Shown here in pieces: positions 9,575 through 52,973 of a stretch of DNA of 52,973 nt. Source of the stretch: a virus (Duplodnaviria > Caudoviricetes); the IMG/VR virus record IMGVR_UViG_3300044576_000027, positions 1 to 52,973 of that record; one strand, given 5' to 3'. The position numbers and the translations under genes are program-made. The notes beneath the pieces are model-generated. The model searched no databases and was not told where the DNA came from. It saw only the letters and a list, made by a program, of their open reading frames with translations. Each line of letters starts with the position of its first letter. The stretch's first letter is position 1.

Positions 9575-9613
9575 ATAATTATACTCTATTGTTGCTTCAT
9601 TCTCATTGGTTCT
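9575..9613 (-). promoter_or_regulatory. cassette promoter repeat (GAACCA...TATAAT)
   Basis: Near-identical to 8418-8456. Confidence 0.7.
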
Positions 9614-9623
9614 GGAAAAGATA

Positions 9624-13622: not shown

Positions 13623-13713
13623 TTTACGAACAAGATTCTGTTTCTAAATGGGTAGTTACGAACAAGATATTGTTTCTAGAGTAGTGTTTACGAACAAGAT
13701 TCTGTTTCTAAAT
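13623..13713. repeat. three iteron-like repeats TTACGAACAAGATTCTGTTTCTA
   Basis: Copies at about 13623, 13656 (variant) and 13688, 32-33-bp period. Confidence 0.8.
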
Positions 13714-16002: not shown

Positions 16003-16226
16003 TCATGTTGGTAGTCTGTAGAGTTATGGACTTGTCTATGTATTAGCATGATTGCTGTGTGTTATCTGCATGGTTCTGTAGTTGTAGAGGATTAGATGTA
16101 TGGCTTGTTTAGAACCACAGGTATAGTTAGGTATAGGGGGGGTATTTTTTGGTTTTATAAATCGAGTTTTTTGGATAAGGGGGTCGAAATATTTCTAGTA
16201 GGTTGGGCTGAAAAGTGGGTGAACTA

Positions 16227-16357
16227 CCATAATAATATATATGAATACAAGAATATATATGAACCTCCATAATAGTATATACCTACCACAAGAATATATA
16301 CATCCACAATAATATATATTGAACCACAATAATATATTGAAACACAATAATATATAT
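16227..16357. repeat. about seven degenerate tandem repeats, consensus CCACAATAATATATAT
   Basis: Seen directly, ~18-21-nt period. Confidence 0.75.
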
Positions 16358-18201: not shown

Positions 18202-19095
18202 ATGAAACAAGATAATGTAGGTGAAAAAAAAGATAACTTTGAAGTGACTAGATTTTCAAGATTAAGCAATGATGCTATAGAGACGCTTAAGCAGAACTTA
18301 CCAAATAAATACTCAGTAGCTTTAACTGATGAGATATACTCTTTAATTGACAAGATGAAAGAAGAAAATTCTATGAATGACTCAGATGCAGTATCATCTA
18401 TATTAGAGAATTTTACATTTGTAAAAGATATAAAGGGATTAACTTTTGATAGATACTGTGTAGCATTAAGGTTTGTGTCATTGGTTCTTAATGGTGTTAC
18501 TCAGATTGATGCCTGGAAGATAATATTTCCTGAAAAAACAAAGCGTGGATACAGTCAAGAACAGATGTTGAAATGGTCAACTGCTTATGCTAATACGAAG
18601 TTGGTTTCAACGTTGAAAGCTAGAATGATGGTATCATTTTCTATACAATATTCACATTTTAGACATGCAGCGATACAAAAAGAGTACGATTTGATGATGG
18701 GAATACCATCTGTTTGTAAGATACCAAAATATAAAAGAACCAAAGATGGAAAGATTAAGCTAGATAAAGATGGTCAAAAGCAAATATTAAGAACGAAACA
18801 TGGAAATATTATGTATGAAGAGGTGTATCAGGTTGTTACTCCTATGGTTCAACATCAAGCTGCTCAAACTATATTGGAGATTACTAAACCTAAAGAAGAG
18901 TCTGAAATTGATATAAATGTTGCAATATCTGTTGATGAAACAAATGAAAAGATGAAAATAAAAAGAACCATGATGGAAATAGCACAGGCACAAAGAGAGA
19001 GACTTGAAAGAGGCGAAAGCATAGATGATGTCCAGAGGATAGGTGATATTATAGAAACATCTCTTGTTGATGACAAGGAGGATGAAGATGAGTAA
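18202..19095 (+). CDS. terminase small subunit (N4 gp69-like)
   Basis: Immediately upstream of the large terminase; ATG 18202 with AAGGAG SD. Confidence 0.6.
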   Translation: MKQDNVGEKKDNFEVTRFSRLSNDAIETLKQNLPNKYSVALTDEIYSLIDKMKEENSMNDSDAVSSILENFTFVKDIKGLTFDRYCVALRFVSLVLNGVTQIDAWKIIFPEKTKRGYSQEQMLKWSTAYANTKLVSTLKARMMVSFSIQYSHFRHAAIQKEYDLMMGIPSVCKIPKYKRTKDGKIKLDKDGQKQILRTKHGNIMYEEVYQVVTPMVQHQAAQTILEITKPKEESEIDINVAISVDETNEKMKIKRTMMEIAQAQRERLERGESIDDVQRIGDIIETSLVDDKEDEDE

Positions 19096-22000
19096 AATTG
19101 AGAAAATTGGTGATAAGAAATATTTAGCTACTGCAAATAATGGCAGTACATTTAATTTTGTAGATAAAATACCAAGAACTAAAGATGAAATTAGTTGGGC
19201 AGTAAAAAATAACTATGTAATACCAGCTTTTGAAGCTATGGATATGGAAATAGACTTACTGTTAGACCATGTAGATTTAAAATTAGATTGGTACATCCCA
19301 TCTGTTGAAGCATTCGATTTTATGAACTTCATGAGATTGTGTCTTGGAAGTGAACCAGAAAATTTGAATAGTAAAGCACATTACTTCTTTGTAGATGCAA
19401 TGTTTGGCTCAGAAGAGATTAAGTCATATTTTCAAGTGAGAGGTATAGATTTTGATGAGTTGAGTAGAGATGTTATTATCTTATCTAGCCGAGAATTTTC
19501 AAAAGCTCTTCATTACAGTACTCTTATAGCTACTCCAAGTGGTCCAAAAGAGATTAGATATATAAAAGATGGAGATATGGTAATAAGCAGGACTGGTAAG
19601 CCAACAAGAGTAATCAAGAAATCAAATATGATTATGGATAACACTTTTGAGATGGTTCTTGAAGATGGAAGAAGATTTAAGTCATCTAATGACCATAGAC
19701 ATATATTGTGGAGAAGAAAAAGTAAGTATATTGGATATTATAAAGATGGAAAGAAATGCTCTAAAAAAGATGGTGGAAAAGCATATTTTATAAATGGAAT
19801 GGAAGAAGTTGTTATGACTTCACAGGAGTTGGCAAGTGAAAACATTGTTACAAATAGAACAATAACAGATAATCAAAGAAGAGGCTATGAAAACAAATAT
19901 TATATACCAAGAATGGATAGTGGAATACAGTACGATCCAGTTAATTTTCCAATTGATCCATATACTGTTGGTGTAATTCTTGGAGATGGTTCTGTCTCAG
20001 AGGGAGTTAAGTTAAGTCAAACGAGTATGGCTAAAAAATATAGAAAATCATTGACTAACAATAATCGAAATAGAAGAATGTACAAAGATGATCAAAAGTA
20101 TGGGGAATCAAGAGGTAGAACTAGAATTACATGCCACAAAGACGATGTAGATAACTTGATAAATAATATTCCTTATGAACTTGCAGTAAAAGGATATAAG
20201 TCAAGAAAGAATATAGTAGATTTAATTATGCCAAAAGATATGAATTCTGTTATAGCAGAATATATTGGTTGTGACAATAGTTACACAAAGAAAGTACCAA
20301 AAATTTTATTGAATGGATCAGTAAGTCAAAGATTATCACTTCTTCAAGGTCTAATGGATACAGATGGAACAATCAATAAAAAAGGTAGCACATCTTACAC
20401 CACTGTGTCAAAACAGTTAGCAGATGATATTGTCTATTTGGTGCGTTCATTAGGTGGTTCTGCTAGAATTTCAGAACGTAAAACTAATAGTAAGTTTGGA
20501 AAAGCATATCAAGTTTTAATCTCTATAAATACATATTCTATTTTTAGATTAAAGAGAAAAAAGGATAGAGAAACATATATTCCAGCAAGAGACTATTTTC
20601 CAATAAAATCATTTGAACTTGTTCATAGTGAACCATCATATTGTTTAACCGTTGAGTGTCCAACATCATCGTTTGTTATGGCTGATGGATTGATAACTCA
20701 CAATAGCACTATTACGATATTTTTTATACTTTATATGGCTGCAAGAGGTATTAAGCCAAACTTTGGAAGAGTAAATTATGGAATGTATGTATCAGATAGA
20801 ATGAAAGGTAACGTAAAGGTTACAATGCAGACAATAGAGACAATCTACATGGGAAGTGAATACTTACAGTCAATATTTGAAGAAGTGCATTTCACTGATG
20901 AAGAGTGTTGGTTTATTAGAAAACCACAGACTCAAAAAGAGATTAGAATTTATAATAAAGCCATGGCACAAGGTAAGAAGATTAAAGAGGTGCCTAAACG
21001 TTCAGAGAGAATGTTTAAAATTACTGGACTTGGTTGCTCTGGTGGTCGTGGTTCTCGAAGTGGTTTAGATAGACCTCAATTTGCAATTTTTGATGATATG
21101 ATTGCCAATGAAAAAGATGCTTACTCTAAAGCTATACTTGACTCTATTGACTCTACAATTGAAGCTGATGTTGGTTCATCTTTAAGTGGTAATGGTAATT
21201 TTAGAATATATATTGGTACAGGTTATCATGTTGATGACCCAGTTTGTAAGAGAGTTAGAGAGCTAGCTGGTATCCCAGTAGTATTTCCAAAAGCTGAGGT
21301 TGCTCCACATGGAGATATTTATGATAGTAACGGTGAACTTGTAAAGCCTGCTCTCAAAGAAGAAGATTTTGTATCTGTATGGAAAGATAGACACTCATTT
21401 AAGAACCAAAGAGCAGACTATGCAAAGGCAGAATTAGCATACAAACGTGGAAATCCAAAGCCACTAAAAACGATAAATCAAGAGTTCTATATTAGATTGA
21501 CATCTGAGCATGAAAGACTAATACCAGATAGTTGTATAAAGACAAAAGACTTGTCATATATAAAAGAAAATGCTATGTTCTTTAATTGGCTATTAACAAC
21601 AGACTATACTACCACAGGAAATAAGAACTCAGACTTTTCAGTTGCAATATTGTGGGCTATGGATAGCGAAGAAAATATGTATATGATTGACATTAAAGCA
21701 GAGAAGATGGATTTGACTGAACAGTATCAAAACACATTAAATATGATAAATGACGCTATTAGTTGGGGTGCTTCTTACGTTGAGATTGGTGTTGAGATTG
21801 ATGGTCAACAATCTTTGCATCTTATAGCGTTGGAGAGATTTTTTGAGAAGAATAAAGCTTCGGAGAAGTTAATATTTGCAAAGCAAATTGAGAAGAGTGG
21901 TAAAAAGGTTACATGGGAAGGAATCAAATCTAAAGGAAGTGGTGATAAATTTTGGAGACTTAAGATTACAGCAGATGAGTTTTATCGTGGAAAAATAATT

Positions 22001-22249
22001 ATAAGTAAAGAGTTGGCTGAGAGTGGTTCTACAGATTTTGAGGTATTAATGCATCAGATAAAAAATGTATCGCAAACAGAAATAAAAACTAAAAATGACG
22101 ACTGCCTTGATGGTATAAGCCAAATATCTTTAATAGATAGAGATTTTCCAACAATGTCATTTGAAGAGGCAAGACGTATGCAAGAGGAGATAGGTTATAA
22201 TGATGATTATGAGTATTCTGACTTTGGATACGGAACTATAGAATATTAA
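19088..22249 (+). CDS. terminase large subunit (N4 gp68-like), intein-containing
   Basis: Walker A SSREFSK^S split by the intein, RPQFAIFDD Walker B, nuclease LTTDYT...SDFS and KNDDCLD. Confidence 0.85.
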   Translation: MSKIEKIGDKKYLATANNGSTFNFVDKIPRTKDEISWAVKNNYVIPAFEAMDMEIDLLLDHVDLKLDWYIPSVEAFDFMNFMRLCLGSEPENLNSKAHYFFVDAMFGSEEIKSYFQVRGIDFDELSRDVIILSSREFSKALHYSTLIATPSGPKEIRYIKDGDMVISRTGKPTRVIKKSNMIMDNTFEMVLEDGRRFKSSNDHRHILWRRKSKYIGYYKDGKKCSKKDGGKAYFINGMEEVVMTSQELASENIVTNRTITDNQRRGYENKYYIPRMDSGIQYDPVNFPIDPYTVGVILGDGSVSEGVKLSQTSMAKKYRKSLTNNNRNRRMYKDDQKYGESRGRTRITCHKDDVDNLINNIPYELAVKGYKSRKNIVDLIMPKDMNSVIAEYIGCDNSYTKKVPKILLNGSVSQRLSLLQGLMDTDGTINKKGSTSYTTVSKQLADDIVYLVRSLGGSARISERKTNSKFGKAYQVLISINTYSIFRLKRKKDRETYIPARDYFPIKSFELVHSEPSYCLTVECPTSSFVMADGLITHNSTITIFFILYMAARGIKPNFGRVNYGMYVSDRMKGNVKVTMQTIETIYMGSEYLQSIFEEVHFTDEECWFIRKPQTQKEIRIYNKAMAQGKKIKEVPKRSERMFKITGLGCSGGRGSRSGLDRPQFAIFDDMIANEKDAYSKAILDSIDSTIEADVGSSLSGNGNFRIYIGTGYHVDDPVCKRVRELAGIPVVFPKAEVAPHGDIYDSNGELVKPALKEEDFVSVWKDRHSFKNQRADYAKAELAYKRGNPKPLKTINQEFYIRLTSEHERLIPDSCIKTKDLSYIKENAMFFNWLLTTDYTTTGNKNSDFSVAILWAMDSEENMYMIDIKAEKMDLTEQYQNTLNMINDAISWGASYVEIGVEIDGQQSLHLIALERFFEKNKASEKLIFAKQIEKSGKKVTWEGIKSKGSGDKFWRLKITADEFYRGKIIISKELAESGSTDFEVLMHQIKNVSQTEIKTKNDDCLDGISQISLIDRDFPTMSFEEARRMQEEIGYNDDYEYSDFGYGTIEY
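19505..20704 (+). mobile_element. intein (400 aa) with LAGLIDADG homing endonuclease
   Basis: Starts ALHYSTLIATPSG, ends GLITHN|S; LAGLIDADG motifs VGVILGDG and LQGLMDTDG. Confidence 0.9.
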
Positions 22250-27283: not shown

Positions 27284-28216
27284 ATGGCTAAAGTTAAAAT
27301 TTTTTGTGACAGAAATATTAGGTATAAAAAACAGGGGCTTCAAAGTTGGAACACAGTACTTGGTGGTATAACAACTGTATTAAATCTTGATTATAATACA
27401 ACATATGAACTAGCTGCTGTTACTGCAACAAGATTGCTTATAGTAGGTGAAGTTGAAAATATAATCATATCAAAGTCAGATTTATCTGACATAAACAACT
27501 CGTTTAAAAATAACTTTTTTCTAAAATCAATAATTATAAACTCTTCAAGTATAATACAAGATGCATCTTATGCTTTTAGAAGCGACTTGAATCTTGAAAA
27601 TATATCTATAACTGGACTAGGAACAAATGCAAATTTGACCGAGATAGCTTTTGGTGTAATTAATGCAAATAGTGCCACAGACATAGTTCCTATTGGAAGC
27701 ACTGGAGTAAAAGATAATGCTCTTGTACTATCAAATGTAATTAACCATGTAAGTAATCTTTATAAAATGCAAGATGTATCTGGCTCAAAAAATGCTATTG
27801 TACCTAATAGTGAGATTGACTTGACTAAATTGGATAGCTCTAGTGATAAAACAAAGTTTCTAATCGGCTCCAATGTATTTGATAATATTGAGATAATGGA
27901 AACTACAGATGGAAATATTCTTAGAAAGAAATACAAAAGCATTTTTGATAAGAGCAAGGATAATAACTATAATATTGAATTAGATTTAAAAAGTCATGAA
28001 TCCGATAGTTATATTGTGAATAATAACACAGATAATAGTAATTTGTTTGACAGCAATCTCAGTGGTTCGTATAATATTGAATTGGATCTAAAACAATATA
28101 AAACTGATAGTTACATTATAAATAATAACACAGATAATAGTAATTTATTTGACAACACTACAAATGCTACATATAATATAGAAATTGATATAATACCTTA
28201 TTACATACTACAATAA
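27284..28216 (+). CDS. putative tail protein with 34-aa C-terminal repeats
   Basis: YNIELDLK...NNNTDNSNLFD repeated. Confidence 0.5.
   Translation: MAKVKIFCDRNIRYKKQGLQSWNTVLGGITTVLNLDYNTTYELAAVTATRLLIVGEVENIIISKSDLSDINNSFKNNFFLKSIIINSSSIIQDASYAFRSDLNLENISITGLGTNANLTEIAFGVINANSATDIVPIGSTGVKDNALVLSNVINHVSNLYKMQDVSGSKNAIVPNSEIDLTKLDSSSDKTKFLIGSNVFDNIEIMETTDGNILRKKYKSIFDKSKDNNYNIELDLKSHESDSYIVNNNTDNSNLFDSNLSGSYNIELDLKQYKTDSYIINNNTDNSNLFDNTTNATYNIEIDIIPYYILQ
27968..28192 (+). repeat. 102-nt intragenic tandem repeat (two copies plus a partial)
   Basis: AATATTGAATTRGAT at 27971 and 28073, variant at 28175. Confidence 0.8.
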
Positions 28217-30177: not shown

Positions 30178-30522
30178 ATGCAAAGTAGAGATATTGAAAG
30201 AACATTAATGAAATTGGGAAATGACATGTCAGTTATGGCTTCCCAGCAAGAGCATACAAGTGAAAACATAGAGAAGCTTTCAAATGAGGTATCTAAGCTT
30301 GTTGAGTATATGCATAAAGATACTCAATCAAAAAAAGATTTCTCTGAGGTCTATAGAGATGTTACTAAAAACAAAGAGATGATAATTAAAGTTGATAACC
30401 ATTGTGAAATGAATACATATAGAACAGACAAATTGGAAAAGATTGTTTATGGAACTGTTAGTATATTGTTAACTTCAATCATTGGTTCAATAGCTTATGC
30501 ATTTGTCGGTGTAAAGCAATGA
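30178..30522 (+). CDS. holin-like membrane protein
   Basis: Coiled coil plus one C-terminal TM helix, directly before the endolysin. Confidence 0.5.
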   Translation: MQSRDIERTLMKLGNDMSVMASQQEHTSENIEKLSNEVSKLVEYMHKDTQSKKDFSEVYRDVTKNKEMIIKVDNHCEMNTYRTDKLEKIVYGTVSILLTSIIGSIAYAFVGVKQ

Positions 30523-36804: not shown

Positions 36805-38103
36805 ATGCCAACTACACCAATTCAATTTAACACTGGATATACAACATCAGATATGGGACCTCAAATTACCCAATATGATATGCAAAGAATTGCCGTTCAA
36901 GAGGCTAAAAAGAACATTCGTTTTTCACAAATGGGTATGTTACAAAAGATTAAACCGAACCATGGTGATGAGTTAAAAAGATACAGAGAGTATCCAATTT
37001 TACATGACAGCAACGTAAACAACCAAGGTTTAGACGCACAAGGTGCTGAACTACTTGCAAATAAGTGGTATGCCTATAAGGCTGATGGTTCACGAACAGT
37101 ACATATTGATGAAGCTTCTGCAAGAGCTGTACTGGGAGTAGTTAAAGTGCTCAAAGGTGGTGGAGCTTTATATGCTGGTTCACGAGATTTTGCACTTCAA
37201 AATGACAACTTTCCTTTAATTGGTGAAATCGGTGGTCGTGGAAATAGAGTAGGTTTAACTCGTGAAATTCTTACAGCAAAAGTCAAAAAGTATGCAATTA
37301 ACATTGAATACACAGCAGATGCATTAAAGTTTGATTCTCAACCAAAACTAAACATCAAATATGCACGTGAAATTGGTAGAGCTTATTCAGAGCTAAGAGA
37401 AGCAATTGTACGTAACCAATTGATTACTGAGGGTCTTGTTAATGCTGCTTATGGTGGTTCTGCTACAACTGTTATTGAAGTAGATGAAACTTCTGGTATT
37501 ACATACCCATCATTGAGACGTATGCAAACTTCACTTGACTTAGCTAGATGTCCTTATGACACAAAGGTAATCAGTGGTTCAAAAAATATTGATACAGTTA
37601 CAGTTTCTGCATCACGATACGTTTACATTCCAATTGAACTTGAATCTGAAATCGAAGATTTAACTCATAATGGTAGAGCAATGTATTCTGATTGGGCTTC
37701 TTATGCTGCTGCTGGTGGAACATCTTACGCACAAGGTGAAATCGGTAAAGCTGGTAAATTTAGATTCATCTCTGACTTTGACTTCCCAATTATGAAGGGT
37801 GCAGGAGCAGATGCTACTAATGGTCTAGACGCGAATGCAAATGGAATTGAAGATGCTGGAGAAGGCAAATCAATTACAAATGGTCATTATGACGTTGCAC
37901 CATTACTATTCGTAGGTAGTGAATCGTTTGAAGTTATTACAACTGAAAAAGATGGATTTGTGCTTAATGAGTCTGCTCCTAAAGTAACTCCAGGTGTTGA
38001 CAACTATGCTGACTTAGGTGTTGTATCTGTTAAGTGGCACCAAGGACTCATGGTGAACAAGGCAGAACACATCCGTTGTTTACTCGTTAGCTTCAACAAA
38101 TAA
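36805..38103 (+). CDS. major capsid protein (N4 gp56 family)
   Basis: GEIGGRGNRVGLTR, KVISGSKNIDT, GEIGKAGKFRFI, YDVAPLLFVG; strongly biased codon usage. Confidence 0.9.
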   Translation: MPTTPIQFNTGYTTSDMGPQITQYDMQRIAVQEAKKNIRFSQMGMLQKIKPNHGDELKRYREYPILHDSNVNNQGLDAQGAELLANKWYAYKADGSRTVHIDEASARAVLGVVKVLKGGGALYAGSRDFALQNDNFPLIGEIGGRGNRVGLTREILTAKVKKYAINIEYTADALKFDSQPKLNIKYAREIGRAYSELREAIVRNQLITEGLVNAAYGGSATTVIEVDETSGITYPSLRRMQTSLDLARCPYDTKVISGSKNIDTVTVSASRYVYIPIELESEIEDLTHNGRAMYSDWASYAAAGGTSYAQGEIGKAGKFRFISDFDFPIMKGAGADATNGLDANANGIEDAGEGKSITNGHYDVAPLLFVGSESFEVITTEKDGFVLNESAPKVTPGVDNYADLGVVSVKWHQGLMVNKAEHIRCLLVSFNK

Positions 38104-38107
38104 TTCT

Positions 38108-38130
38108 AAACCCCTAAATATAGGGGTTTT
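38108..38130 (+). terminator. intrinsic terminator after the MCP
   Basis: AAACCCCTA-AATA-TAGGGGTTTT. Confidence 0.75.
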
Positions 38131-38222
38131 AATCTACTATCAAACATCAAATCATAAAAAATTACAGAATATAAGTCGATTCAAAATGAAATCATGGTAC
38201 AATTCATTACAAAAACAACATC

Positions 38223-38287
38223 TTAGAGGTTACCAAGCCAGACTTCTGGTTACTTCTGCGTCTCTCTGACAACGAGGTAACCTCTAA
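38223..38287 (+). ncRNA. leader stem-loop before the Rha gene
   Basis: TTAGAGGTTACC/GGTAACCTCTAA perfect 12-bp stem with an internal AGCCAG/CTGGTT hairpin; TGGTACAAT -10 at 38195. Confidence 0.5.
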
Positions 38288-38288
38288 A

Positions 38289-38945
38289 TTGAAAGAGGTT
38301 GCAGATAAATATGGAAAGCAAAACAAGAATCTTTTGCGAGATTTTAACAACATGGTTGCAGAATTGTCAGAGAAAAATTTTAACCAGCTCAGATTTGAGC
38401 CTGTTAAATATATTGACAAGAAAAACGAAGAAAGACCAACAGTGATGGTAGATTTTAAGACTCTTGTTTGGTTTGTAACCAAATTTGATCACAACCTCAG
38501 ATTAAAAGTTATTAATGAAGCTTTTGCTAAGCTAGAACAACAAAAAGAACAAGAAAAACTTGAAGCTGTAAAACAAGCTAAACTTCCAAAAGTATATGAC
38601 AATGGATATACTTCTGTTCGTGGTGCAATTAGTTCTCATTTTGAAGACATAAAAGATGATGTAAATGAAAGTGATGTTTGGGATGCTCTAGTCAGTCAAG
38701 AAGTAGTTGTAACAAGAGCAAAGGTAACAATTAAACGTGAACTGTCTGAATCATTTGATGGATTAGCTGGAACAGCAAAACATAATATGGCTGTATTTGA
38801 TCCACAATTAGTTAGAAACTGTTATGAAAAATGGATTGAAGCTGGTAAACCTATTAAATCAGAGTATGAAAGATTAATAGAAGAGTTTGAACAAATATCT
38901 GAGTACTACAAGGAAAAGATTGAGGAAGCTAAGAAAAAATTATAA
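38289..38945 (+). CDS. Rha-family regulator, N-terminally truncated (TTG start)
   Basis: LKEVADKYGK; C-terminus KPIKSEYERL..EFEQIS.YYKEKIEEAK shared with 8679-9410; no in-frame ATG upstream. Confidence 0.65.
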   Translation: MKEVADKYGKQNKNLLRDFNNMVAELSEKNFNQLRFEPVKYIDKKNEERPTVMVDFKTLVWFVTKFDHNLRLKVINEAFAKLEQQKEQEKLEAVKQAKLPKVYDNGYTSVRGAISSHFEDIKDDVNESDVWDALVSQEVVVTRAKVTIKRELSESFDGLAGTAKHNMAVFDPQLVRNCYEKWIEAGKPIKSEYERLIEEFEQISEYYKEKIEEAKKKL

Positions 38946-38956
38946 CTACCTCTCCA

Positions 38957-38993
38957 TCATTGGTTCTCATAATATCTAGAACCACAAAGATAA
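38957..38993 (+). repeat. cassette boundary direct repeat with inverted TGGTTC-N12-GAACCA
   Basis: 37 nt, two mismatches to 39907-39943. Confidence 0.8.
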
Positions 38994-39021
38994 GATTAAA
39001 CTACAATAAGGTATAATTCAT

Positions 39022-39122
39022 TTAAACAACTTTTATATGCTCAGTTATGAAGTTTTTGGCGAGGCTTTCTGCATGGCTGAGTATATGAAAGTTGTTTAAG
39101 TGAAAGCCTTGCCATCTTTCAC
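39022..39122 (+). ncRNA. two-hairpin leader with loop-loop complementarity
   Basis: Long stem; loop TGGCGAGGCTTTC pairs with GAAAGCCTTGCCA in the GTGAAAG/CTTTCAC hairpin; homologous to 8319-8416. Confidence 0.65.
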
Positions 39123-39180
39123 ACAAAAATAATCAACTTAAAATTTTAAAATCTTATTTGCTATAAATATAAGGATTATT

Positions 39181-39895
39181 ATGCAAAGCGATATTATCAA
39201 ATTAGATAACAATGGTGCTGCTTATGCAGTTGTAAAAGATATAGCTGAGTATTGTGAGGTAGATGTTAAAGCTACAAGACAATTGGTTTTAAATCATATT
39301 GATGAGTTCAATGATGTTACAAATAAGTTGCAAAATAAAATTGGTGGCATTTCAAATGGTGCTTCCAAAGATTCGTTTAAGGTTCCAGAATTGAAACTAA
39401 TTAAAAAAAGAGGAACATCAAGAGATGAAGTTGATTGGTCAAAAACAAAACTTTATCAACCTCACATAGAATTGTTGCTTATGATGATGAAAAAATACAA
39501 AGATAGTTAGAAGTCATAAAGTTGACGTTATTGTCGATCTATTTGCCTCAAAATTTGAACTAATACAAACAAAACTTGAAAATCAAAAACTACTAATTGA
39601 AAAACAAAATACTGAGTTAGTTTTACTTGAAAATAAAGTTAATCAACTTGAAACTGATAAATTTTATGATTGGGAAGAAGAGTACTCATCTGTATCAAGA
39701 TTTATCAAAGAAAATAAACTAAAGATTACATCTACTGAATTACTTGATAAACTTGAAGAAGCTAAGCAAATTGAAACTAAGCAAATTACTAGGATGGTTA
39801 GATTTTTAACAGAAGAATCTGATGGTAGAGTTTCAAAGAAAGGTACATTGTTGTTTAAGAATAGTTTACTCAAAAAATTATCTGACACTATCTAA
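39181..39895 (+). pseudogene. Rha-like regulator interrupted by a +1 frameshift in an A6 run
   Basis: Removing one A at 39490-39495 gives LLLMMMKNTKIVRSHK... and an open frame to TAA 39893-39895. Confidence 0.7.
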
Positions 39896-39906
39896 CTCAT
39901 TTTTAA

Positions 39907-39943
39907 TCATTGGTTCTCAAAATATCGAGAACCACAAAGATAA
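39907..39943 (+). repeat. cassette boundary direct repeat; TGCTATAAT promoter follows
   Basis: Copy of 38957-38993. Confidence 0.8.
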
Positions 39944-39983
39944 AACAAACTATGCTATAATAATATCAATCAAGGAGTAACAG

Positions 39984-40346
39984 ATGATAAATCCGGATAA
40001 AGAAGAAGGTTTACTTGAAGCAAGAAATTTAACTGCTGTAAAAAATATGAGTATTATGGAAAACTTAGTTGAACATTGGCATTTGGGTCCTAAAGTTGCT
40101 TATGATAATCAACAAAAAAATGATGAGTTTTGGGAGTCATTAGCTAAGGTAATGTTTGTAACTGTAGATGAAGCAAGGAGATACAGTTGTGCTAGTTGTA
40201 AATATGGAAACATTAGACCTGAATTTTTAAAAGAAATGGAACATATTCCATATAATGATCTAGACAAAGATGGTGGAATTAGAGTTTGGTGTGATAAATT
40301 TGATTTTATTTGTCATACTACTAGAGTTTGTCAAGCATATATCTAA
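39984..40346 (+). CDS. Cys-rich metal-binding hypothetical protein
   Basis: CASC...WCDKFDFICHTTRVC; AAGGAG SD. Confidence 0.7.
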   Translation: MINPDKEEGLLEARNLTAVKNMSIMENLVEHWHLGPKVAYDNQQKNDEFWESLAKVMFVTVDEARRYSCASCKYGNIRPEFLKEMEHIPYNDLDKDGGIRVWCDKFDFICHTTRVCQAYI

Positions 40347-45581: not shown

Positions 45582-46659
45582 TGATGCATTTCAATGGAGA
45601 GGTGCTGGTCAGCAAATATCTGCACCTAGACTATCAAATTATGGTATCTTTACTGATGCTAGAAAACATATAGATCAATATCTGCAAGAGCAAGATAAAG
45701 CAAAGAAACTTGAAGAAGAGAGAGCTAGACAAGACAAGCTTATTGCTAATGATAGGGCTTTTAAAGAGCTAATGCAGAGAAAAAGATTTGGTCATGACGA
45801 ACAATTAAGGAGAGACAATCAAGCATTTCAAGAAAACATGTTTAATAAGAAATCTGATTTTGAAAAAGATTTGCAGAAACAAAAAATTGGTCATGACGAG
45901 CAGATGCAAAAAGATAGAATAAATGGTCAAATAACCCTAGAGAATCTAAGATATTCACATAGTTTGGGAGAGATTGGTGCTAGAGCGTCCAAACAGAAAG
46001 AAGTTGCTAGATATAAAGCTGGTCTAAATAAACCCATAAAAGGTGAAAAGGTTGGTGGTATTGATTTATCTAAACTTGTTAAATATGACGTTTTGGGAAC
46101 CACCAAGAAGAAGATAATTGACGAAAGTATTCCACTAGGCGATGATTACAAAAACAAAGTAAATGAGGCTAGTAAATATTTTGGTGATATTAAAAACTAC
46201 AAAGATAAGTTAAAAGAAAAAGGCTTATCCAATAGTGAACGTAAATCATTGGAAAGAAAAATAAGCCTAACAAAAGCAAATGCACTAAATTCAGATTCAC
46301 TAGAAGAGTACAAAAAGAAACTTGCTGATAAAATTAGGACTAGAGAAGTTGTTGTTCCGACAAAAACAAGATTGAATATTGAAGAGACTACAAAAAACTT
46401 TTCAAATTTATTTGTAAACAGCAACTTAAAAGGTCCACAGATAAAAGCAGCACAGGATTATTTAAAGAGACTATCTAAAGAGCAAGATGATACATACAGC
46501 AATACATTAGAGGCTACAAAAAAGGCTTTAGATTCAAACGTAAAGAATGCACAAAGTTACCATGATAGCCTAATTAAAAATGGAGTAGATCCTAAAACTG
46601 CTGAAAGTTCAACGAAAGAAAAATTTAAATCTGCTGCAAGATACGTACAGTTTTACTAA
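45574..46659 (+). CDS. N4 gp51-slot internal virion protein
   Basis: Charged coiled coil; synteny. Confidence 0.5.
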   Translation: MASDAFQWRGAGQQISAPRLSNYGIFTDARKHIDQYLQEQDKAKKLEEERARQDKLIANDRAFKELMQRKRFGHDEQLRRDNQAFQENMFNKKSDFEKDLQKQKIGHDEQMQKDRINGQITLENLRYSHSLGEIGARASKQKEVARYKAGLNKPIKGEKVGGIDLSKLVKYDVLGTTKKKIIDESIPLGDDYKNKVNEASKYFGDIKNYKDKLKEKGLSNSERKSLERKISLTKANALNSDSLEEYKKKLADKIRTREVVVPTKTRLNIEETTKNFSNLFVNSNLKGPQIKAAQDYLKRLSKEQDDTYSNTLEATKKALDSNVKNAQSYHDSLIKNGVDPKTAESSTKEKFKSAARYVQFY

Positions 46660-46755
46660 AAAATAACTATTCTCCGAACCACAAGGAGAATAGAATTACT
46701 CAAATAAATCAAAAAATGTTATAATTGTTAAAAACAAATATCAAGGAATATAAAT

Positions 46756-49700
46756 ATGTCACTATATGATAAAATGTATGCAGAGAATAGAGCATTAGGC
46801 GTAGCACAAGATGTTAAAGATAATGAATTCAAGACAGCAAGAGAAAGAGATAAACTTGATACTATTGCATACAATGAATATCTTAAGAATGGTGAAATAT
46901 TGTATAATAATGGCAATCCTGTATCAGATGATCCACGAAATGAAATAAAACTTGATAGTAATGGTAAGCCATATAATACTGGAGCAATAATTGGTGGGCT
47001 AAAAGAAGCTTCAAATTTTATTGTAGATAATCTAGCACCAGATAGTTTAAAGTCAGATTTACATTCAAATATATATAAAGATGGAAGAATTTATGATACA
47101 TCAAATAAATCTGATTCTGGTATATTTTCAAAATATAGTGCCTCAAAAATGAAAGATTTTCTTGAAAATGTTGAAGATGATCCAAATGCAAAAGGTACAC
47201 TTTATGCAGAGAGAGTCTTTGCTGGTCTTAATCCCGATGGTTCGGAGAAGTATTATATTAAATATGGATACTCAAAAGATGGTTTAGTTGAGAGACAAGC
47301 ATCAAATAAAGGACTTGCCACAGAGATATTATGGCAAAAAAGATTTGCTAATGCAGAACAGGCTGAGAATAGAATAAATCAATTGAATTTTGAAGCAAAT
47401 AACAACGTTTATGATGTAGGTAATGGTAAGGTATCAGGCTTTGGTTCTGGATACTCTGAGATAGCAAAGAATGATATTTTAGGTATGTTAAATGTGAACC
47501 AGACAGACGAACAATTGACTGCAAACTATAATAAGAGTCTTGAAGATGCAAATAACTATAAATTTCAAAGAAAAGATGCTGATAAAAATAATACATTCTA
47601 TGAAAAATATGTAAAACTTGGTGACTATGGTGATGCATTGCAATACGGTGGCGTAAAACTTGTAAATGATTTGGCAGATACTGCTCTAACTGCTGTTGGT
47701 GCATTAGGTAATTATGTTGGACTTGAAAATGATTTAAAGAATAATATATTCGACAAATGGAGTAATAACGCTGCAAAAATAACTGGTTACAATGAAGCAG
47801 ACTTTAATGCTGCCATAAAAGAATCTGTTGGAAGATTTAAAGGTGGAGACTATTTTGGTGCAATAACTGGAGATTTTTCAACATTAGCTGAATCAATATT
47901 CTCTTCAGCTCCAGATATGGCTTTAATGTATGCTTCAGGTGGAGCTTCAATATTATCAAAATCAAGCAAAGGTAAAAAATATTATTCCTTGATTAAGAAA
48001 TCTGAAGAGGCACTAAAAAATGGAAACAAAAATCTAGCAGATAGTTTTTTATCTAAAGCTAACAAAATAAAAGACGATATTATAAAAACAGGCACAAATG
48101 CAGAGAAGGAATTTACTAATCTAACTGGAGAAATTAGCTCTATAAGAGATATAGCTTCAACTATAGGTAAAGACTATGGGTTTAATGCTATTGTTGCAAA
48201 ACAGACAAATGATGTTGTTGAGCAAAGAATAGCTAATGGTGACAAAGATATAACTGTAGGCGAGGTTGCTTCAATAGCTCTATCTCAATATTTAGCTTCA
48301 TCACTTGACAAACTTGCACTAGAAGAAGTTTTAAAGGCTCCAAAGACTATAGGAGTATTAAGAAAAGCTGTATCATCTATAACTGATAAAAGCAAGATTG
48401 CTTCTATTGGTGCAAAACTTCTTCAAAAGTCAATAGATGTTGTAAAAGCTTCTGGTGTAGAAGCTGGACAAGAGTATTTGCAAACATGGACTGAAGTTCT
48501 TGGAGCAGATGTTGGTGTAGATGGAAAAACACTAATAGAAGCATTAAAGGATGAATCAAACAATGATGAAGTACTTGGTGCTATGTTAGCTGGTGGTGTA
48601 TCTGGTGGTTCTGTTCATGGTATATCAAGTGCAGTAAACATTGTAACAGATAAATCTTTAGGTGCCATAGACACTGTAAAGCAAAATAGAGCAAATAGTA
48701 TAGATACTGCTTATGTAGAAAGACCAATGGATGATACATATAAAACAATAGTATCTAAAGAAGACTTTGATTCTCCAGAGCATACTGCTGAAGATAAACT
48801 GTATAGCATAAAAGAATTTCTTGACAATGATAGTGAGCATGACATTGAAGAAGATATAAAAAAAGAGTTACCAAAAAAGATAGTAGAGGTATCAATTGAG
48901 AATGCTATAGATAAAAAAGATCCTAATATTGCATCTCAAAACTTATCATCAATGCTGTTGAATATAAAGTCAAGTGATGTTAATAATAAAGAAAATATGA
49001 TAAGTGACTTGATAAGAATATCTAAAGAACATGGTGTTGATGTATCAAATGACATTCTTGAAACAGATGCAATTGATGACATGTTTAAAGCGATGTACGG
49101 TGCATCATCAAATAAAAAAGGTTCATCAATAAGAGAACCACAAACAGAAGATATAACAAATAATCCTATAGATTTTTCAGTAAACAATGAAGCTAGATCT
49201 GTTAAAAATAGGATGTATGGAAAATTAGATGACTCAATATCTTTAATGAGAAAAAAGATAGGTAGATATTCTAAACTTGGTCTAGACATAGCTCCATTAA
49301 CAAATGCATTAAAAACATTAGAAAAGTACAACAACACTAAAAAAATAAATGGAAATATAGGTTCAAAAGACATAAGAGATGTCTCAAATGAGATAAGTCA
49401 AATAGGTTTTATCTCCGATGATGGTTCACTAATTGCACCATCTATATCTGCTTATGATAAATTTTTACCAATGCTATTTGATCCATCTTCTTCAAAGAAT
49501 ATAGGTCCAATAAGAAGTGGATTTGTAAGCTTAAAGGGTTTTGATAGCTTCATTAGAAGTAGATATTCTCATATGTCTTCAATTGAAAACAATGAAGACT
49601 TGTTGATACAGAAACTAAAAGAATTAGATGAGTTGTCCGATACAATATCAAAAACAAACTCATCTATAGTGTCATCAGAATCAATATCAGATAGCAATAA

Positions 49701-51153
49701 AGCATCATATTCAAGTAAAATGATAGAGTTGCAAGATATCGTTAATGCTACAAGAAGTAGATTTTTTGACAAACTTGTAAATAGAAATATATCATATAAC
49801 ATTGCAAGAAAAGCAAACAGTGATCTTGACTACATTCCAACAGAAGAGATAGATAAAGCAATTCAAGATATAAAGAGTAATTCTTTAGACAAGAATTATA
49901 TAATGTCTAAATTTAAAGAAATAGCAAATAATGGATACATCTCTCCATCTGATGCTTCCAGGCTAATAGATGCTTCAAATATAACATATAGCAGTGATAG
50001 TACATTTGGTGGTTCAAAAAGTAATGTACAATCGGATATTAAAAAGGATGATGTATCCAAAAAAATAAATGATTTTGTTATAAAATTTCAAGCAAGTCAA
50101 AAGAATAAAAATGTGTCAAAGACAATAAGCGATAACGATTTTGATAAAGTTATGGCTGGCATGTTAAAGGCAATAAGCAATAATAGAACTGATGAAGTAA
50201 GTTTATTGTCAAAAGCTATTTCTGCTAGAAAATTAAGTGTTGAACAGATAAAGAAACTTTTTGCAATCGTAAATGCAAACAATAATTTTAGTCGTAAGGC
50301 TAAACAACTAAAAGAAGCAAAAGAACTTGAACTAGCTTCACTTGATGCTAAATCAAAAATAGCAATGCTTAAGAAATTTAAAAATGATTTAAATAAGGAA
50401 TTTAAAGACAGTAATCATTTTACAGTTTCTGATACAAAAGAATTTTCATCTGCTATTGGAATAATTTACAATGAATTATCAAAAGAAATAGAAGATACAT
50501 ATAATGAGATATTAAGCATATCTAGCGAGATTGACTATGTAAAATCAAATAGACTAGACAAGTCTAAAGATGCACAAAAAAAATCAAGTTCAAAAAAAAT
50601 AAGAGACAAGATAGGTAAAGCAATAAAAAAGTTCATATCGAGAATTTCAATTTTAAAAGATAGATTAAAAAAGGTAAAAGCTAAAAACAGAAATGATTTA
50701 AGAGATAAGAACTCACTTGATAAAATAATATTCAAAATACTGGGAGAGTCAAAAAGAAGTCATCAGAGAAAAGTAACAGAGAACAACTATAATGAAATAC
50801 TGTCACAAATAAACAAGACAATTTCATTGCTAAACGATAAAGGTAACAATAATGCGAGTGAACAAATAGATTCAAATATAAACGAAAAAAGAACCACAAA
50901 CACAGAAAGCACAAAAGGAAATATAGAAAGTATTGGTAAATATAGTAAAGTAAATGTAACTGATGGTTCAAAAAATATTGATAACAATATTACAATTATA
51001 AACAAAGATGATATAATTACTAAAATAAGTGAAGAACTTGTCAATTCGTATCCAGGTAAAGTTGATAATATAATAAATAATTTATTGAAAATCAAGGACA
51101 AAGATAAAGCAAATAGAATGCTGGAAATATTAAACGAATTCTCAAAATGTTAA
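46756..51153 (+). CDS. large ejection-type virion protein (vRNAP N-terminal-like)
   Basis: GVEAGQEYLQ...GAMLAGGVSGG ejection-protein pattern; occupies the vRNAP slot; no polymerase motifs recognised; TGTTATAAT promoter at 46717. Confidence 0.55.
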   Translation: MSLYDKMYAENRALGVAQDVKDNEFKTARERDKLDTIAYNEYLKNGEILYNNGNPVSDDPRNEIKLDSNGKPYNTGAIIGGLKEASNFIVDNLAPDSLKSDLHSNIYKDGRIYDTSNKSDSGIFSKYSASKMKDFLENVEDDPNAKGTLYAERVFAGLNPDGSEKYYIKYGYSKDGLVERQASNKGLATEILWQKRFANAEQAENRINQLNFEANNNVYDVGNGKVSGFGSGYSEIAKNDILGMLNVNQTDEQLTANYNKSLEDANNYKFQRKDADKNNTFYEKYVKLGDYGDALQYGGVKLVNDLADTALTAVGALGNYVGLENDLKNNIFDKWSNNAAKITGYNEADFNAAIKESVGRFKGGDYFGAITGDFSTLAESIFSSAPDMALMYASGGASILSKSSKGKKYYSLIKKSEEALKNGNKNLADSFLSKANKIKDDIIKTGTNAEKEFTNLTGEISSIRDIASTIGKDYGFNAIVAKQTNDVVEQRIANGDKDITVGEVASIALSQYLASSLDKLALEEVLKAPKTIGVLRKAVSSITDKSKIASIGAKLLQKSIDVVKASGVEAGQEYLQTWTEVLGADVGVDGKTLIEALKDESNNDEVLGAMLAGGVSGGSVHGISSAVNIVTDKSLGAIDTVKQNRANSIDTAYVERPMDDTYKTIVSKEDFDSPEHTAEDKLYSIKEFLDNDSEHDIEEDIKKELPKKIVEVSIENAIDKKDPNIASQNLSSMLLNIKSSDVNNKENMISDLIRISKEHGVDVSNDILETDAIDDMFKAMYGASSNKKGSSIREPQTEDITNNPIDFSVNNEARSVKNRMYGKLDDSISLMRKKIGRYSKLGLDIAPLTNALKTLEKYNNTKKINGNIGSKDIRDVSNEISQIGFISDDGSLIAPSISAYDKFLPMLFDPSSSKNIGPIRSGFVSLKGFDSFIRSRYSHMSSIENNEDLLIQKLKELDELSDTISKTNSSIVSSESISDSNKASYSSKMIELQDIVNATRSRFFDKLVNRNISYNIARKANSDLDYIPTEEIDKAIQDIKSNSLDKNYIMSKFKEIANNGYISPSDASRLIDASNITYSSDSTFGGSKSNVQSDIKKDDVSKKINDFVIKFQASQKNKNVSKTISDNDFDKVMAGMLKAISNNRTDEVSLLSKAISARKLSVEQIKKLFAIVNANNNFSRKAKQLKEAKELELASLDAKSKIAMLKKFKNDLNKEFKDSNHFTVSDTKEFSSAIGIIYNELSKEIEDTYNEILSISSEIDYVKSNRLDKSKDAQKKSSSKKIRDKIGKAIKKFISRISILKDRLKKVKAKNRNDLRDKNSLDKIIFKILGESKRSHQRKVTENNYNEILSQINKTISLLNDKGNNNASEQIDSNINEKRTTNTESTKGNIESIGKYSKVNVTDGSKNIDNNITIINKDDIITKISEELVNSYPGKVDNIINNLLKIKDKDKANRMLEILNEFSKC

Positions 51154-51166: not shown

Positions 51167-52973
51167 ATGCCAAACAATTGTGATTTAAGTAGTGCTTTAG
51201 AAGAGCTGTCAAAAATTGGACTTTATTCGAAAGAAAATGATGCCTTTAGAGATATTATTGTTGAGATATCAAAGTCAAATAAAACACATCCATTATCTAA
51301 AAGTAACGATTTGGAATTTATAAAATCAAGAACAATTAGTGAAATAGATAACTCATTTGAATCAATTGATGGAATCAATAGCTCATTAAAGAAGTCAATA
51401 GAAAACAAAATAGATTCACTTAAGACATCAATATTAAAAGATTTTAATAGTATAGAGAAATATAGAAAAGAAAATATATATTTACATTACAAGCGTAGCA
51501 GTATAAAATACCTAAGAAGCATTCTTAAAAAAACTAAAAGCGATAGAGAAAAACATGGCAAGCACTATCTAAAATTAAAAAAAAATAATGATATTGCAGT
51601 AAAAAGAAATATTGAACTGTCAAAAGATTTATTAATATTAGAAAAAGAACTTAATCGTGAAAATAGTAAAATTGATGCCAACAACAAGAGAGGTGTAAAA
51701 TCTTACTATGAAAAGTTAAATGAGTTAACAAACAAGATCAATGAGATAAAAGAAGAAATACATAAAAATGATGAACACATAAATAGATTTAACATATATG
51801 ACAAAAATGATATCGATCTAAAGTACTCTGAGAAAATAAAAGATTTAGAGTACAAAATAGGTACACTCTCTGAAAATACAACTGGAGATAAAAGTTCTCA
51901 TGCTGAGAATGTATTAAATACAATAAAATCAAAAATATTAAATGTATTTAAGTATATAAGAGAAAAAATAAAAAATATATCTAAAAAAAGAGAAGACGTT
52001 AGGTACCTAGAATCATTAATTGATAAACTTGAAAATGGACAAAATTTATTAGATATTGATAATGATAGATTGAAACTAGAATTTAAAATAACAAGTGGAG
52101 AGTATATTGATGATACAGTCAAAGAATCCTATGATAAATTAACAAATAGTAATGAAAATATTAAGAATATTGTTGAAATAAAAAGTACACCACTTACAAA
52201 AGCAATTGATATAATGATTAGAATGAGAGACAAAGGCACAAAAGAAGTCTTTTCTACTATATCAAGACTGCAAGGTCATAATGTAAATATTGGAAAAATA
52301 AGCAGTGATGATATAGATATACTATCAAATATTTCAAGAAAAATTGGATTTTCAACATTAGACATTAATAAAGCTGTTGGTTCAACAAAAATAAAAGAAG
52401 ATACATCAATTGATAGTGGAAACAATGTATTTTATGTTTTAAATGACATTTTTAAAACAGAAAATGGTTTGTTAGGTAAAACTCAAATGATGGCTATAGC
52501 TATAGGTGTATCTGACGCTATCTCAAATTGGTCTATAAGAGCCAACAATCTTAGGAGAAAAGATGTTGACCAGTTATCAAAAGATACTGGGATATCACTT
52601 GAAGATGCAATGATTTTAAAAAGCCATCTTGAATCTGGAAAAATACCAACAAGACTAATGATAAAGGAAACTTCTCAGTTAGTAATGGATTCAATTGGAA
52701 TATCTGTAAAAAAAGATGTTGATCACAAAACAAAGGATATTATTGAATCTGGAATAGAAGCTTTAATTTTGGCTCAATTAAAATCATTCATTGGCAAACA
52801 AAATAAATCATCAATGTCAACAGAAGTTGTGGATATTGGGACTAAAAAATACACAATGATTTCGTTGAATGAGAAGTATATTGAAGATATTTTGGGATAC
52901 AAGATAAATGACATATCAAAGTCGATAAGAAACTTCTCATATATTGATGAAAATAGGTTAAAAAATACTGTAT
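51167..52973 (+). CDS. large protein running off the window end (possible vRNAP polymerase part)
   Basis: ATG 51167 with AAGGA SD; translated by hand at both ends in the same frame with no stop seen (MPNNCDLSSALEELSK...). Confidence 0.6.
   Translation, partial: MPNNCDLSSALEELSKIGLYSKENDAFRDIIVEISKSNKTHPLSKSNDLEFIKSRTISEIDNSFESIDGINSSLKKSIENKIDSLKTSILKDFNSIEKYRKENIYLHYKRSSIKYLRSILKKTKSDREKHGKHYLKLKKNNDIAVKRNIELSKDLLILEKELNRENSKIDANNKRGVKSYYEKLNELTNKINEIKEEIHKNDEHINRFNIYDKNDIDLKYSEKIKDLEYKIGTLSENTTGDKSSHAENVLNTIKSKILNVFKYIREKIKNISKKREDVRYLESLIDKLENGQNLLDIDNDRLKLEFKITSGEYIDDTVKESYDKLTNSNENIKNIVEIKSTPLTKAIDIMIRMRDKGTKEVFSTISRLQGHNVNIGKISSDDIDILSNISRKIGFSTLDINKAVGSTKIKEDTSIDSGNNVFYVLNDIFKTENGLLGKTQMMAIAIGVSDAISNWSIRANNLRRKDVDQLSKDTGISLEDAMILKSHLESGKIPTRLMIKETSQLVMDSIGISVKKDVDHKTKDIIESGIEALILAQLKSFIGKQNKSSMSTEVVDIGTKKYTMISLNEKYIEDILGYKINDISKSIRNFSYIDENRLKNTV

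Follow-up and report, generated by a model that had tools for sequence, protein, structure and literature searches.

A candidate shuffled gene cassette with a structured two-helix leader, downstream of the capsid gene of an N4-like phage

The virus record IMGVR_UViG_3300044576_000027, hereafter the window, comprises 52,973 bp of about 30% G+C and is the whole record for a phage genome. Downstream (3') of its major capsid gene, at 38943-39943, lies the element studied here, cassette A. Our best explanation, to which we give a probability of roughly 60%, is that cassette A is a stand-alone transcription unit in a plastic region of the genome, in which a stem-loop and a TATAAT promoter are followed by a structured leader of 160 nt and by a small gene of DNA-binding type, now frameshifted; that it is shuffled in the manner of the promoter-early stem-loop (PeSL) elements of T4-type phages; and that its leader is a regulatory RNA with two helices. 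A sequence-only reading of this DNA had described a mobile unit, bracketed by direct repeats and carrying a Rha-like gene behind a leader that covaries with a second copy in the genome. The comparisons below were made with four IMG/VR contigs of one sub-lineage, namely L118, G001, G002 (the same as L119) and G003. The parts of cassette A are as follows.

38943-38993, plus strand: left module, direct repeat DR1, from the stop codon of Rha gene F; inverted repeat 38961-38984 plus CAAAGATAA
39012-39017, plus strand: inferred -10 box TATAAT; predicted start within the first bases of S1
39023-39098, plus strand: S1, a 27-bp hairpin with arms 39023-39049 and 39072-39098 and a 22-nt apical loop
39057-39069, plus strand: X, UGGCGAGGCUUUC, in the S1 loop; starts with UUGGCG
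39100-39106 and 39116-39122, plus strand: stem of hairpin H2, which includes X' as 5' arm and loop
39102-39114, plus strand: X', GAAAGCCUUGCCA, complementary to X over 13 bp; 5' arm and loop of H2
39123-39175, plus strand: G-poor, unstructured tail; block shared with leader B at 39126-39159; Shine-Dalgarno (SD) sequence AAGGA at 39171-39175
39181-39510, plus strand: N-terminal frame of gene A, 109 aa; compared with a homologue, the frame is interrupted by one additional A in the run 39490-39495
39491-39895, plus strand: C-terminal part of gene A in the next frame, for most of its length without a start codon of its own
39893-39943, plus strand: right module, direct repeat DR2; inverted repeat 39911-39934; its TATAAT at 39956-39961 and an SD serve the gene 39984-40346, without a long leader

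Two helices in the leader RNA

The leader of cassette A (39019-39183) was aligned with 8419-8255 on the minus strand, the leader of a paralogous unit B, at a mean column identity of 82% over 168 columns, which bears out the alignment with 8416-8258 reported earlier. The fold energy was -49.5 kcal/mol for leader A (z = -5.5, 1 of 200 shuffles as good) and -44.3 kcal/mol for leader B (z = -5.0, 0 of 200). In the structural alignment of the two, RNAalifold found 35 pairs, nine of them changed on both sides and none broken, in agreement with the compensatory changes in stem and loop sequences that the sequence-only reading had pointed out. The loop and the downstream sequence are complementary over 13 bp in both leaders. 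One layout recurs in six leaders, those of A, B and a third unit, D, of the window and one each in G001, G002 and G003: the 5' arm of S1, X, the 3' arm of S1 and, within 0-10 nt, X', which forms the 5' arm and loop of H2. The position of the -10 box relative to S1 is kept in all six. The units B and D were delimited as follows.

8255-8477, minus strand: unit B, 5' of the KilA-N gene 7454-8257; inverted repeat 8450-8477, TATAAT 8421-8426
8416-8343, minus strand: S1 of leader B, the paralogue of leader A; X 8383-8371, X' 8339-8327
9411-9632, minus strand: unit D, 5' of an Ant/Rha-like gene (8679-9410, likely start ATG 9410); degenerate inverted repeat, TATAAT 9578-9583
9572-9558 and 9507-9493, minus strand: S1 of leader D, of the same layout as A; X 9557-9542, X' about 9486-9466

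The significance of the X:X' pairing was assessed for each leader by comparing the duplex energy with that of 2000 shuffles.

Leader A: S1 -35.0, X:X' -24.0 kcal/mol; 0 of 2000 shuffles as good as X:X'
Leader B: S1 -32.0, X:X' -21.7 kcal/mol; 0 of 2000
Leader D: S1 -17.0, X:X' -29.0 kcal/mol; 0 of 2000
Leader G002-A: S1 -21.7, X:X' -23.9 kcal/mol; 8 of 2000
Leader G001-D: S1 -17.6, X:X' -30.6 kcal/mol; 0 of 2000
Leader G003-kilA3: S1 -24.4, X:X' -22.2 kcal/mol; 0 of 2000

Leaders A, B and G003-kilA3 can be aligned in a gap-free register, and there 8 of the 13 X:X' pairs are changed on both sides, with none of the 39 cells unpaired. When X of one of these three was set against X' of another, only 7-11 of the 13 positions could pair. 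In a separate comparison of leaders, cognate X:X' duplexes had energies of -22 to -29 kcal/mol, versus -5 to -14 kcal/mol for non-cognate ones. The orthologous pairs A/G002-A and D/G001-D have the layout in common and no recognisable sequence likeness. Judged by these helices and their conservation across the six leaders, the leader is a well-supported structured RNA, and the functional RNA structure proposed earlier gains in strength.

Interleaved inverted repeats of this kind might also act as DNA, in the form of cruciforms, of single-strand hairpins in the manner of the N4 virion-polymerase promoter or origin, or of palindromic protein sites. The N4-type capsid, portal and giant polymerase-like gene of the window are in keeping with such a role, as are the score of the antisense strand with the covariance model described below and the G001 leader, which folds better on the antisense strand. 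We nevertheless regard it as quite improbable. In the helices of four leaders, all 13 non-Watson-Crick pairs among the 150 are G-U pairs on the sense strand, and in five of the six leaders the fold of the sense strand is the more stable one; for these two reasons, RNA in the orientation of the gene is favoured. Moreover, the element always lies between the -10 box and the SD, in the orientation of its gene, and its stems of 14-27 bp are far longer than those of the N4 promoter hairpins, which have 5-7 bp.

S1 and X:X' appear to be mutually exclusive in cis, because X' starts 3 nt past the base of the stem and X lies at its top. From helix geometry, X in the loop and X' should be unable to touch in one molecule as long as the 27-bp stem stands, and a loop-loop contact within one molecule, as envisaged by the sequence-only reading, was abandoned. 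After in silico removal of the 5' arm, X:X' became the main helix of the minimum-free-energy (MFE) fold in all six leaders. In leader D it is the MFE helix already, and in the G002 leader S1 and X:X' are nearly matched in energy (-21.7 versus -23.9 kcal/mol). These last two leaders would suit a simple in-cis switch of two helices with Rho-dependent or other premature termination in the tail, without processing or action in trans, and so would the scarcity of G in the tails, 34-45 nt in length (10 G in 163 nt in four leaders, versus 17.8% on the sense strand). A tail block like the 5' arm (AAUCAACUU), seen by reading only, could in addition pair with the 3' arm of S1. Such a switch is rather doubtful, however, as the duplex energy of S1 in A, B and G003 exceeds that of X:X' by 2-11 kcal/mol and S1 is formed first, and no trigger is known. 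The motif AAUCA(A/G) was noticed post hoc in the tails of all five leaders inspected (all but G003), and tails of this kind would suit Rho or a standby-ribosome site.

Several observations weigh against the reading of the leader as a two-helix regulatory RNA on the sense strand, among them the strand preference of the G001 leader given above. S1 is far stronger than X:X' in A and B (-35 and -32 versus -24 and -22 kcal/mol), and X:X' may never form in cis in these two. Occlusion of the SD as the output of a switch was set aside: between the two states, its predicted unpaired probability went from 0.39 to 0.49, 0.34 to 0.14, 0.57 to 0.57, 0.47 to 0.49, 0.54 to 0.79 and 0.52 to 0.54 in the six leaders, with no consistent direction. 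In G003, the leader of the D homologue is short, and no such layout was seen in it (by eye only); hence the layout is not obligatory for the gene family. Changes templated by hairpins during replication can mimic covariation in inverted repeats. Finally, the comparative support consists of four distant contigs.

A rough scan for the layout returned 3 occurrences in the 53-kb window, whereas N4-like loci totalling 1.06 Mb gave 10 and control loci totalling 1.03 Mb gave 6; the scanner overlooked two of the six known leaders (G002 and G003), and these background rates are only a guide. The matches of two covariance models, R1 and R2, were confined to A, B, C and G003, with a weak one in G001, and 80 other N4-like loci gave nothing; the antisense strand scored as well. 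A cmscan of the whole window against Rfam 15 at E<=1 gave three chance-level matches, none of them in leader A, B, C or D. UUGGCG opens the loops in A, B and C and is absent from the D, G001 and G002 leaders; G003 has UUGACG. No promoter-like site was found on the opposite strand at 39100-39200. A leader peptide was considered and rejected, the small open reading frame (ORF) having 20 codons in A and 3 in B and thus not being conserved.

Stem-loop/promoter modules and the place of cassettes

The direct repeats 38957-38993 and 39907-39943 differ at 2 of their 37 positions, and a repeat search lengthened the pair to 51 nt at 84% (38943-38993 and 39893-39943, family D16), both copies beginning at the stop codon of the preceding ORF. 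Each contains the inverted repeat TGGTTCT-N10-AGAACCA and has a TATAAT on its 3' side (39012-39017 and 39956-39961), just as had been noted from the letters. The pattern TGGTTC-N8-20-GAACCA occurs 4 times in the window versus 0.03 expected, and none of 100 shuffles reached 4. The repeats do bracket a promoter, a leader and a gene; they are, however, two of at least five hairpin-plus-promoter modules and not a unique pair, further copies of the inverted repeat being found at 7412-7440 and 8450-8477 (exact) and near 9600-9632 (degenerate). In units A, E (39984), B and D, 20-27 nt separate the inverted repeat from a TATAAT on its 3' side; in C it stands 5' of TTCAAT. In C, B, D and A, the module is followed by a -10 box and then by a gene of KilA-N, Rha or Ant type, except that gene A itself has no family match. 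The remaining sites are these.

7309-7440, minus strand: unit C, 5' of the Rha gene 6706-7308; inverted repeat 7412-7440
7393-7336, minus strand: leader of unit C, a short S1-like hairpin whose loop UUUUUGGCGAUU matches X of B; without an X' of its own
38104-38288, plus strand: unit F, 5' of the Rha gene 38289-38945; the capsid gene is followed by a canonical terminator, then TACAAT and a leader hairpin of another type with the SD inside it
46650-46725, plus strand: single-module site, hairpin TTCTCC-GAACCACAA-GGAGAA plus TATAAT; G002 has the gene A cassette here, and the site is 'empty' in the window

An intrinsic terminator at H2 or at the module hairpins was rejected, since no U tract was seen after either.

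Units of this family occupy different places in the relatives. In L118, only a gene-free interval of 180 nt separates the capsid gene from the w40448 homologue. In G002, a KilA-N-like gene follows the capsid gene, and the gene A orthologue, which is 42.6% identical to one window frame (101 aa) and 44.3% identical to the other (131 aa), is found far downstream, between the positional counterpart of w45574 (weak, E = 9e-4) and the giant polymerase-like gene, bordered on both sides by AGAACCAG...CTGGTTCT and TATAAT. D of the window belongs to the early region, but its G001 orthologue (49% identity) is a late-region gene placed after the w40448 homologue. This orthologue is enclosed by a direct repeat with 48 of 49 positions in common, which spans the upstream coding end and a hairpin. 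G003 has three KilA-N genes between the capsid gene and the w40448 homologue, and these units are divided by hairpin-plus-promoter repeats in which the loop TTAAGT is conserved and the stems differ. The bordering repeat sequence differs from genome to genome and always includes that genome's own promoter module.

These comparisons suggest that the region after the capsid gene is plastic and that cassettes change place, with breakpoints at the stem-loop/promoter modules proper to each genome. The mobility claimed by the sequence-only reading is thus backed only as modular shuffling, which we infer from the differing sites of orthologous, repeat-flanked cassettes in distant relatives, and no recombinase came to light. 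Of the empty-site variants it called for, the gene-free L118 site and the single module of the window at the G002 site were found, and no true allelic empty site was.

The bracketing of a unit by direct repeats in the window, G001, G002 and G003 would equally suit an autonomous mobile element, the 37-nt repeats being attachment or target-duplication sites of a dedicated recombinase or nuclease, and zinc-finger/HNH-like ORFs stand directly after the capsid gene in three more distant relatives, L120 (8085-8540), L123 (9517-10290) and L124 (5980-6236). This explanation is very unlikely. Pfam and PHROG scans found no integrase, transposase or homing nuclease in or beside cassette A, the repeat sequence is genome-specific and includes the genome's own promoter module, and the module also heads genes that are not flanked twice, such as the one at 39984. 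The site after the capsid gene nevertheless looks like an insertion hot spot across the lineage. In G002 (L119 11270-11460), the last 25 nt or so of the capsid gene recur about 130 nt downstream, directly before the KilA-N-like gene, a duplication that looks like a recombination scar.

A more local explanation starts from the motif in the module arms. GAACCA occurs 122 times in the window versus 15.7 expected, 51 of the copies being Gly-Ser codon pairs. The intergenic copies number 22 in about 4.1 kb versus about 1.2 expected, an 18-fold enrichment with the consensus ATATT-N4-5-AGAACCA, and ten single copies lie in the control region at 12.6-16.3 kb. GAACCACAA occurs 15 times versus 0.37 expected. 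Example sites of the GAACCACAA/GAACCA enrichment are 12613, 13352, 13520, 14269, 14525, 14558, 15645, 16076, 16112 and 16321, and the motif is probably a protein-binding or promoter-type site of the phage lineage. The modules might accordingly be regulatory sites only, an operator or terminator plus promoter served by an AGAACCA-binding protein, with cassettes arising by local duplication and divergence and the repeats as a by-product of tandem units. Besides the enrichment, its extended consensus and the single control-region copies, the paralogy of D, F and C (45% and 27-29% identity) and the finding that adjacent modules are most alike (D3, 95% over 43 nt) agree with this. We consider it unlikely, because orthologues of A and D stand at non-homologous sites in G002 and G001 with fresh flanking repeats, because the G001 repeat, in spanning the 3' end of the upstream coding sequence, resembles a recombination scar and not a binding site, and because one leader type precedes unrelated genes, namely A, of no family, and B, of the KilA-N family.

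Shuffling of promoter-headed units remains our preferred reading, with counter-evidence of its own. A -35 box is weak or absent in the module promoters, of which a generic promoter scan flags only B and D; the cassette A promoter has none and was left unflagged by the sigma-70 scan, promoter-like sites in the window are at shuffle expectation, and the promoters are placed by position only. Having no U tract, the module hairpins are at best putative terminators. The AGAACCA arms belong to the genome-wide intergenic motif, and a binding protein, instead of recombination, could keep the modules alike. Gene A is broken, so this copy of the cassette may be decaying. Neither a recombinase nor a true allelic empty site was seen among the four distant relatives, and mobility at the level of junctions is deduced by comparison with relatives that are 42-46% identical in the capsid protein.

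As to gene A, the label Rha-like found no support, since its ORFs have no Rha, KilA-N or Ant match in Pfam (gathering score) or PHROGs. The gene is split by a frameshift. Its family has six proteins, three of which hit Phage_pRha weakly at E<=1 (best 9.3e-5); in the alignment, the N-terminus of one of the six, P0012, departs from the others and is Rha-like. An hhalign comparison with the Rha paralogues gave a probability of 21% for the C-terminal part only, and the best BLASTP match of gene A to the window paralogues had E = 0.17. The AlphaFold model (mean pLDDT 74) returned only weak helix-turn-helix-like rows in a Foldseek search of PDB, none at E<=0.001. An intact 234-aa IMG/VR homologue corresponds to two successive frames of the window, the first over 39190-39489 and the second over 39491-39859, the difference being one extra A in the run 39490-39495, which could be a real mutation or a homopolymer error. 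The neighbouring products are more readily assigned: F and C match Phage_pRha with 36.2 and 32.5 bits (cut-off 29.9), B matches KilA-N with 52.2 bits (cut-off 23.8), and the D product matches PHROG anti-repressor families.

Leader F is of another type, a 12-bp hairpin that contains the SD and whose 18-nt 5' arm is identical in G003. This hairpin, TTAGAGGTTACCAAGCCA ... GGTAACCTCTAA (38223-38287; G003 30370-30450), keeps its 18 identical nucleotides despite a capsid identity of 45%; its 3' arm holds the SD in the window, and in G003 it is about 250 nt from the next gene. Between the stop codon of D and the B module, 8478-8678 on the minus strand comprises 200 nt without a convincing gene and may be a remnant of a lost unit. 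G002 over-uses GAACCAG instead of the window motif, with 31 copies versus 1.4 expected. The divergent control region also holds iteron-like arrays (16226-16357 and 13623-13713), one made of three ACCACAA-TAATATATAT units and the other of three 27-nt units spaced 32 nt apart, which may mark an origin or operator field.

Proposed mechanism and related systems

From these results, the following mechanism may be put forward. Neighbouring units share a module, so that homologous recombination between modules could insert, delete or swap units. The leader would act as a sense-strand regulatory RNA in which S1 and X:X' exclude each other in one molecule, X:X' joining the loop or interior of S1 to the stretch that adjoins S1 on its 3' side and otherwise folds into H2. 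S1 would be made first during synthesis, and X:X' would most likely form only without S1 or in another molecule. Two routes can be envisaged. In the first, the S1 duplex is cut, for example by a double-strand RNase, and the released top with X acts as an antisense RNA on H2 of a sister transcript; in the second, the 5' arm is lost or occupied, and X:X' forms in cis. By either route, the fate of the G-poor downstream leader would be set, and with it the output of a gene possibly harmful to the host. Processing, action in trans and regulatory outcome are proposals in this scheme.

Each leader would carry an X/X' 'address' of its own. More tentatively, the leaders may be self-addressed riboregulators, orthogonal between paralogues, each limiting its own KilA-N/Rha/Ant gene, with the promoter-leader block mobile by module recombination. 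If true, this would amount to RNA control of the plasmid-incompatibility type inside a phage, spreading as a mobile regulatory cassette, and it may explain how phages restrain genes of the KilA-N/Rha/Ant type. The leader, which is not in Rfam, offers a testable case of paralogous regulatory RNAs avoiding cross-talk. It is also a compact RNA part that nature has diversified: one scaffold bears at least three interchanged 13-bp addresses, and three further scaffolds follow the same logic. If the cassette part of the explanation is true, promoter/stem-loop shuffling reaches beyond T4-type phages to the unrelated N4-like lineage and would be a general route for lytic phages to try accessory genes within fixed structural operons.

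The closest known system is that of the PeSL of T4-type phages. According to the parts of the published accounts used here, recombination between PeSL modules causes indels and mini-circles (Arbiol et al. 2010, PMC2839356; Comeau et al. 2014, PMC4122927), and promoter and terminator activity was demonstrated for them (PMC2839356). As in the window, a short intergenic stem-loop stands beside a promoter of sigma-70 type (PMC2839356; PMC4122927), the module extends from the stop codon of the upstream gene to the SD of the next, and modules are repeated around non-essential single genes in plastic regions, with differences between genomes bounded by them. The differences are that PeSL belong to T4-type myoviruses and the present phage is N4-like; that the stems here are AT-rich, with conserved arms or loops and without a U tract, whereas PeSL stem-loops frequently have polyG/polyC tracts (PMC2839356); that promoter, terminator and mini-circles were established experimentally for PeSL, whereas the modules here are known from sequence alone; and that no long structured leader figures in the PeSL description at hand (PMC2839356). 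The window modules therefore resemble PeSL in having a stem-loop with a sigma-70-like promoter and, by comparison with distant relatives, variable genes and indels bounded by modules, and depart from them in that the host phage is not T4-type. By this analogy, we regard the cassette as a new case, in the N4 lineage, of gene shuffling bounded by promoter/stem-loop modules.

The morons of lambdoid phages, reportedly described by Juhala and Hendrix in 2000, are said to be promoter-gene-terminator units between genes that are adjacent in relatives. Cassette A is likewise an independent transcription unit between structural genes that are adjacent in L118; unlike morons, the units here have no canonical 3' terminator, occur in arrays with one common module and reside in an apparently lytic phage.

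For the leader, and in particular for the first of the two routes, the c4 antisense RNA of the P1/P7 immI operon offers one parallel, being described, in the part of the source used here, as co-transcribed and as controlling the P1 antirepressor operon (PMC8198154, citing Citron & Schuster 1990). The antisense element is on the same strand and transcript as its target, 5' of an antirepressor-type gene (PMC8198154), and specificity lies in short complementary segments. No Rfam C4 match was found in the window at E<=1, and for the present leader, processing is a proposal. The complementary segments of c4 differ between P1 and P7. The c4 target, as that source presents it, covers the ribosome binding site, whereas X' is about 65 nt 5' of the SD.

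A second parallel is the stem-loop I/pseudoknot switch in the rep mRNAs of IncI-complex plasmids, in which, according to the passages available, a pseudoknot needed for RepZ translation competes with an antisense RNA (PMC8053102); UUGGCG is named in the title of a paper on the IncI stem-loop I antisense target, listed among the references of PMC10724649. The likeness in the apical UUGGCG is partial, as it extends to the loops of A, B and C; the pairing of the loop with a downstream leader segment and the setting of specificity by few loop bases are common to both. In the plasmids, as far as these sources describe them, the partner is far downstream by the rep start and a pseudoknot is possible in cis, whereas here X' abuts the stem and the helices are exclusive. 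In addition, no antisense gene or conserved leader peptide was found here, and the D, G001 and G002 leaders do not have UUGGCG.

Phage context and further observations

The window encodes a major capsid protein (36805-38103) that is 32-34% identical to the capsid proteins of N4-like phages, as well as a portal, a large terminase, a helicase and a primase. The structural gene order is that of N4-like phages, in which homologues of gp55/gp54 stand directly 3' of the capsid gene. By capsid, portal and gene order, we classify the phage as N4-like, and it appears to be lytic. No tRNA genes were found in the window.

Identity of the capsid protein to that of the window is 46% for L118 and G002 and 45% for G003; in G001, where the capsid gene consists of two ORFs, it is 42% for one and 34% for the other. 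The capsid proteins P0002-P0004 are 73-79% identical to that of the window; the genomic comparison was based instead on L118 and G001-G003. A blastn search of INPHARED gave no nucleotide match to the window phage, and P0011 had no match there. The capsid protein as a single query gave no match in IMG/VR and the JGI metagenomes, nor did the capsid alignment in metagenomes. The families of genes A and D were not found in GTDB genome contigs. The leader 15-mer gave at least 116 chance matches in IMG/VR, which were reused as control DNA; two longer DNA patterns gave none and one (G003 only).

Several further features of these genomes were noted. The capsid gene of G001 (L201) consists of two ORFs, 4111-4857 and 5222-5578 on the minus strand, with a gap of about 360 nt, which could be due to an insertion, an intron or a sequencing break. 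The large terminase ORF of the window (19064-22249) encodes 1061 aa, with PHROG terminase matches on separate stretches, and its G003 homologue 1322 aa; this size suggests at least one intein or inserted domain. The ORFs 46756-51153 (1465 aa) and 51167-52972 (more than 602 aa, running off the end) occupy the place of a single 3232-aa ORF of G003. The product of 46756-51153 is 29% identical to that of the G003 ORF over 995 aa, and that of 51167-52972 was unmatched in the same comparison. The two are likely to represent an N4-type virion RNA polymerase, split or interrupted in the window, and the contig probably ends inside this polymerase-like gene. Finally, two tandem 102-nt copies, 78% identical, lie at 27968-28171 inside ORF 27284-28216, and a probable partial third copy begins at 28172.

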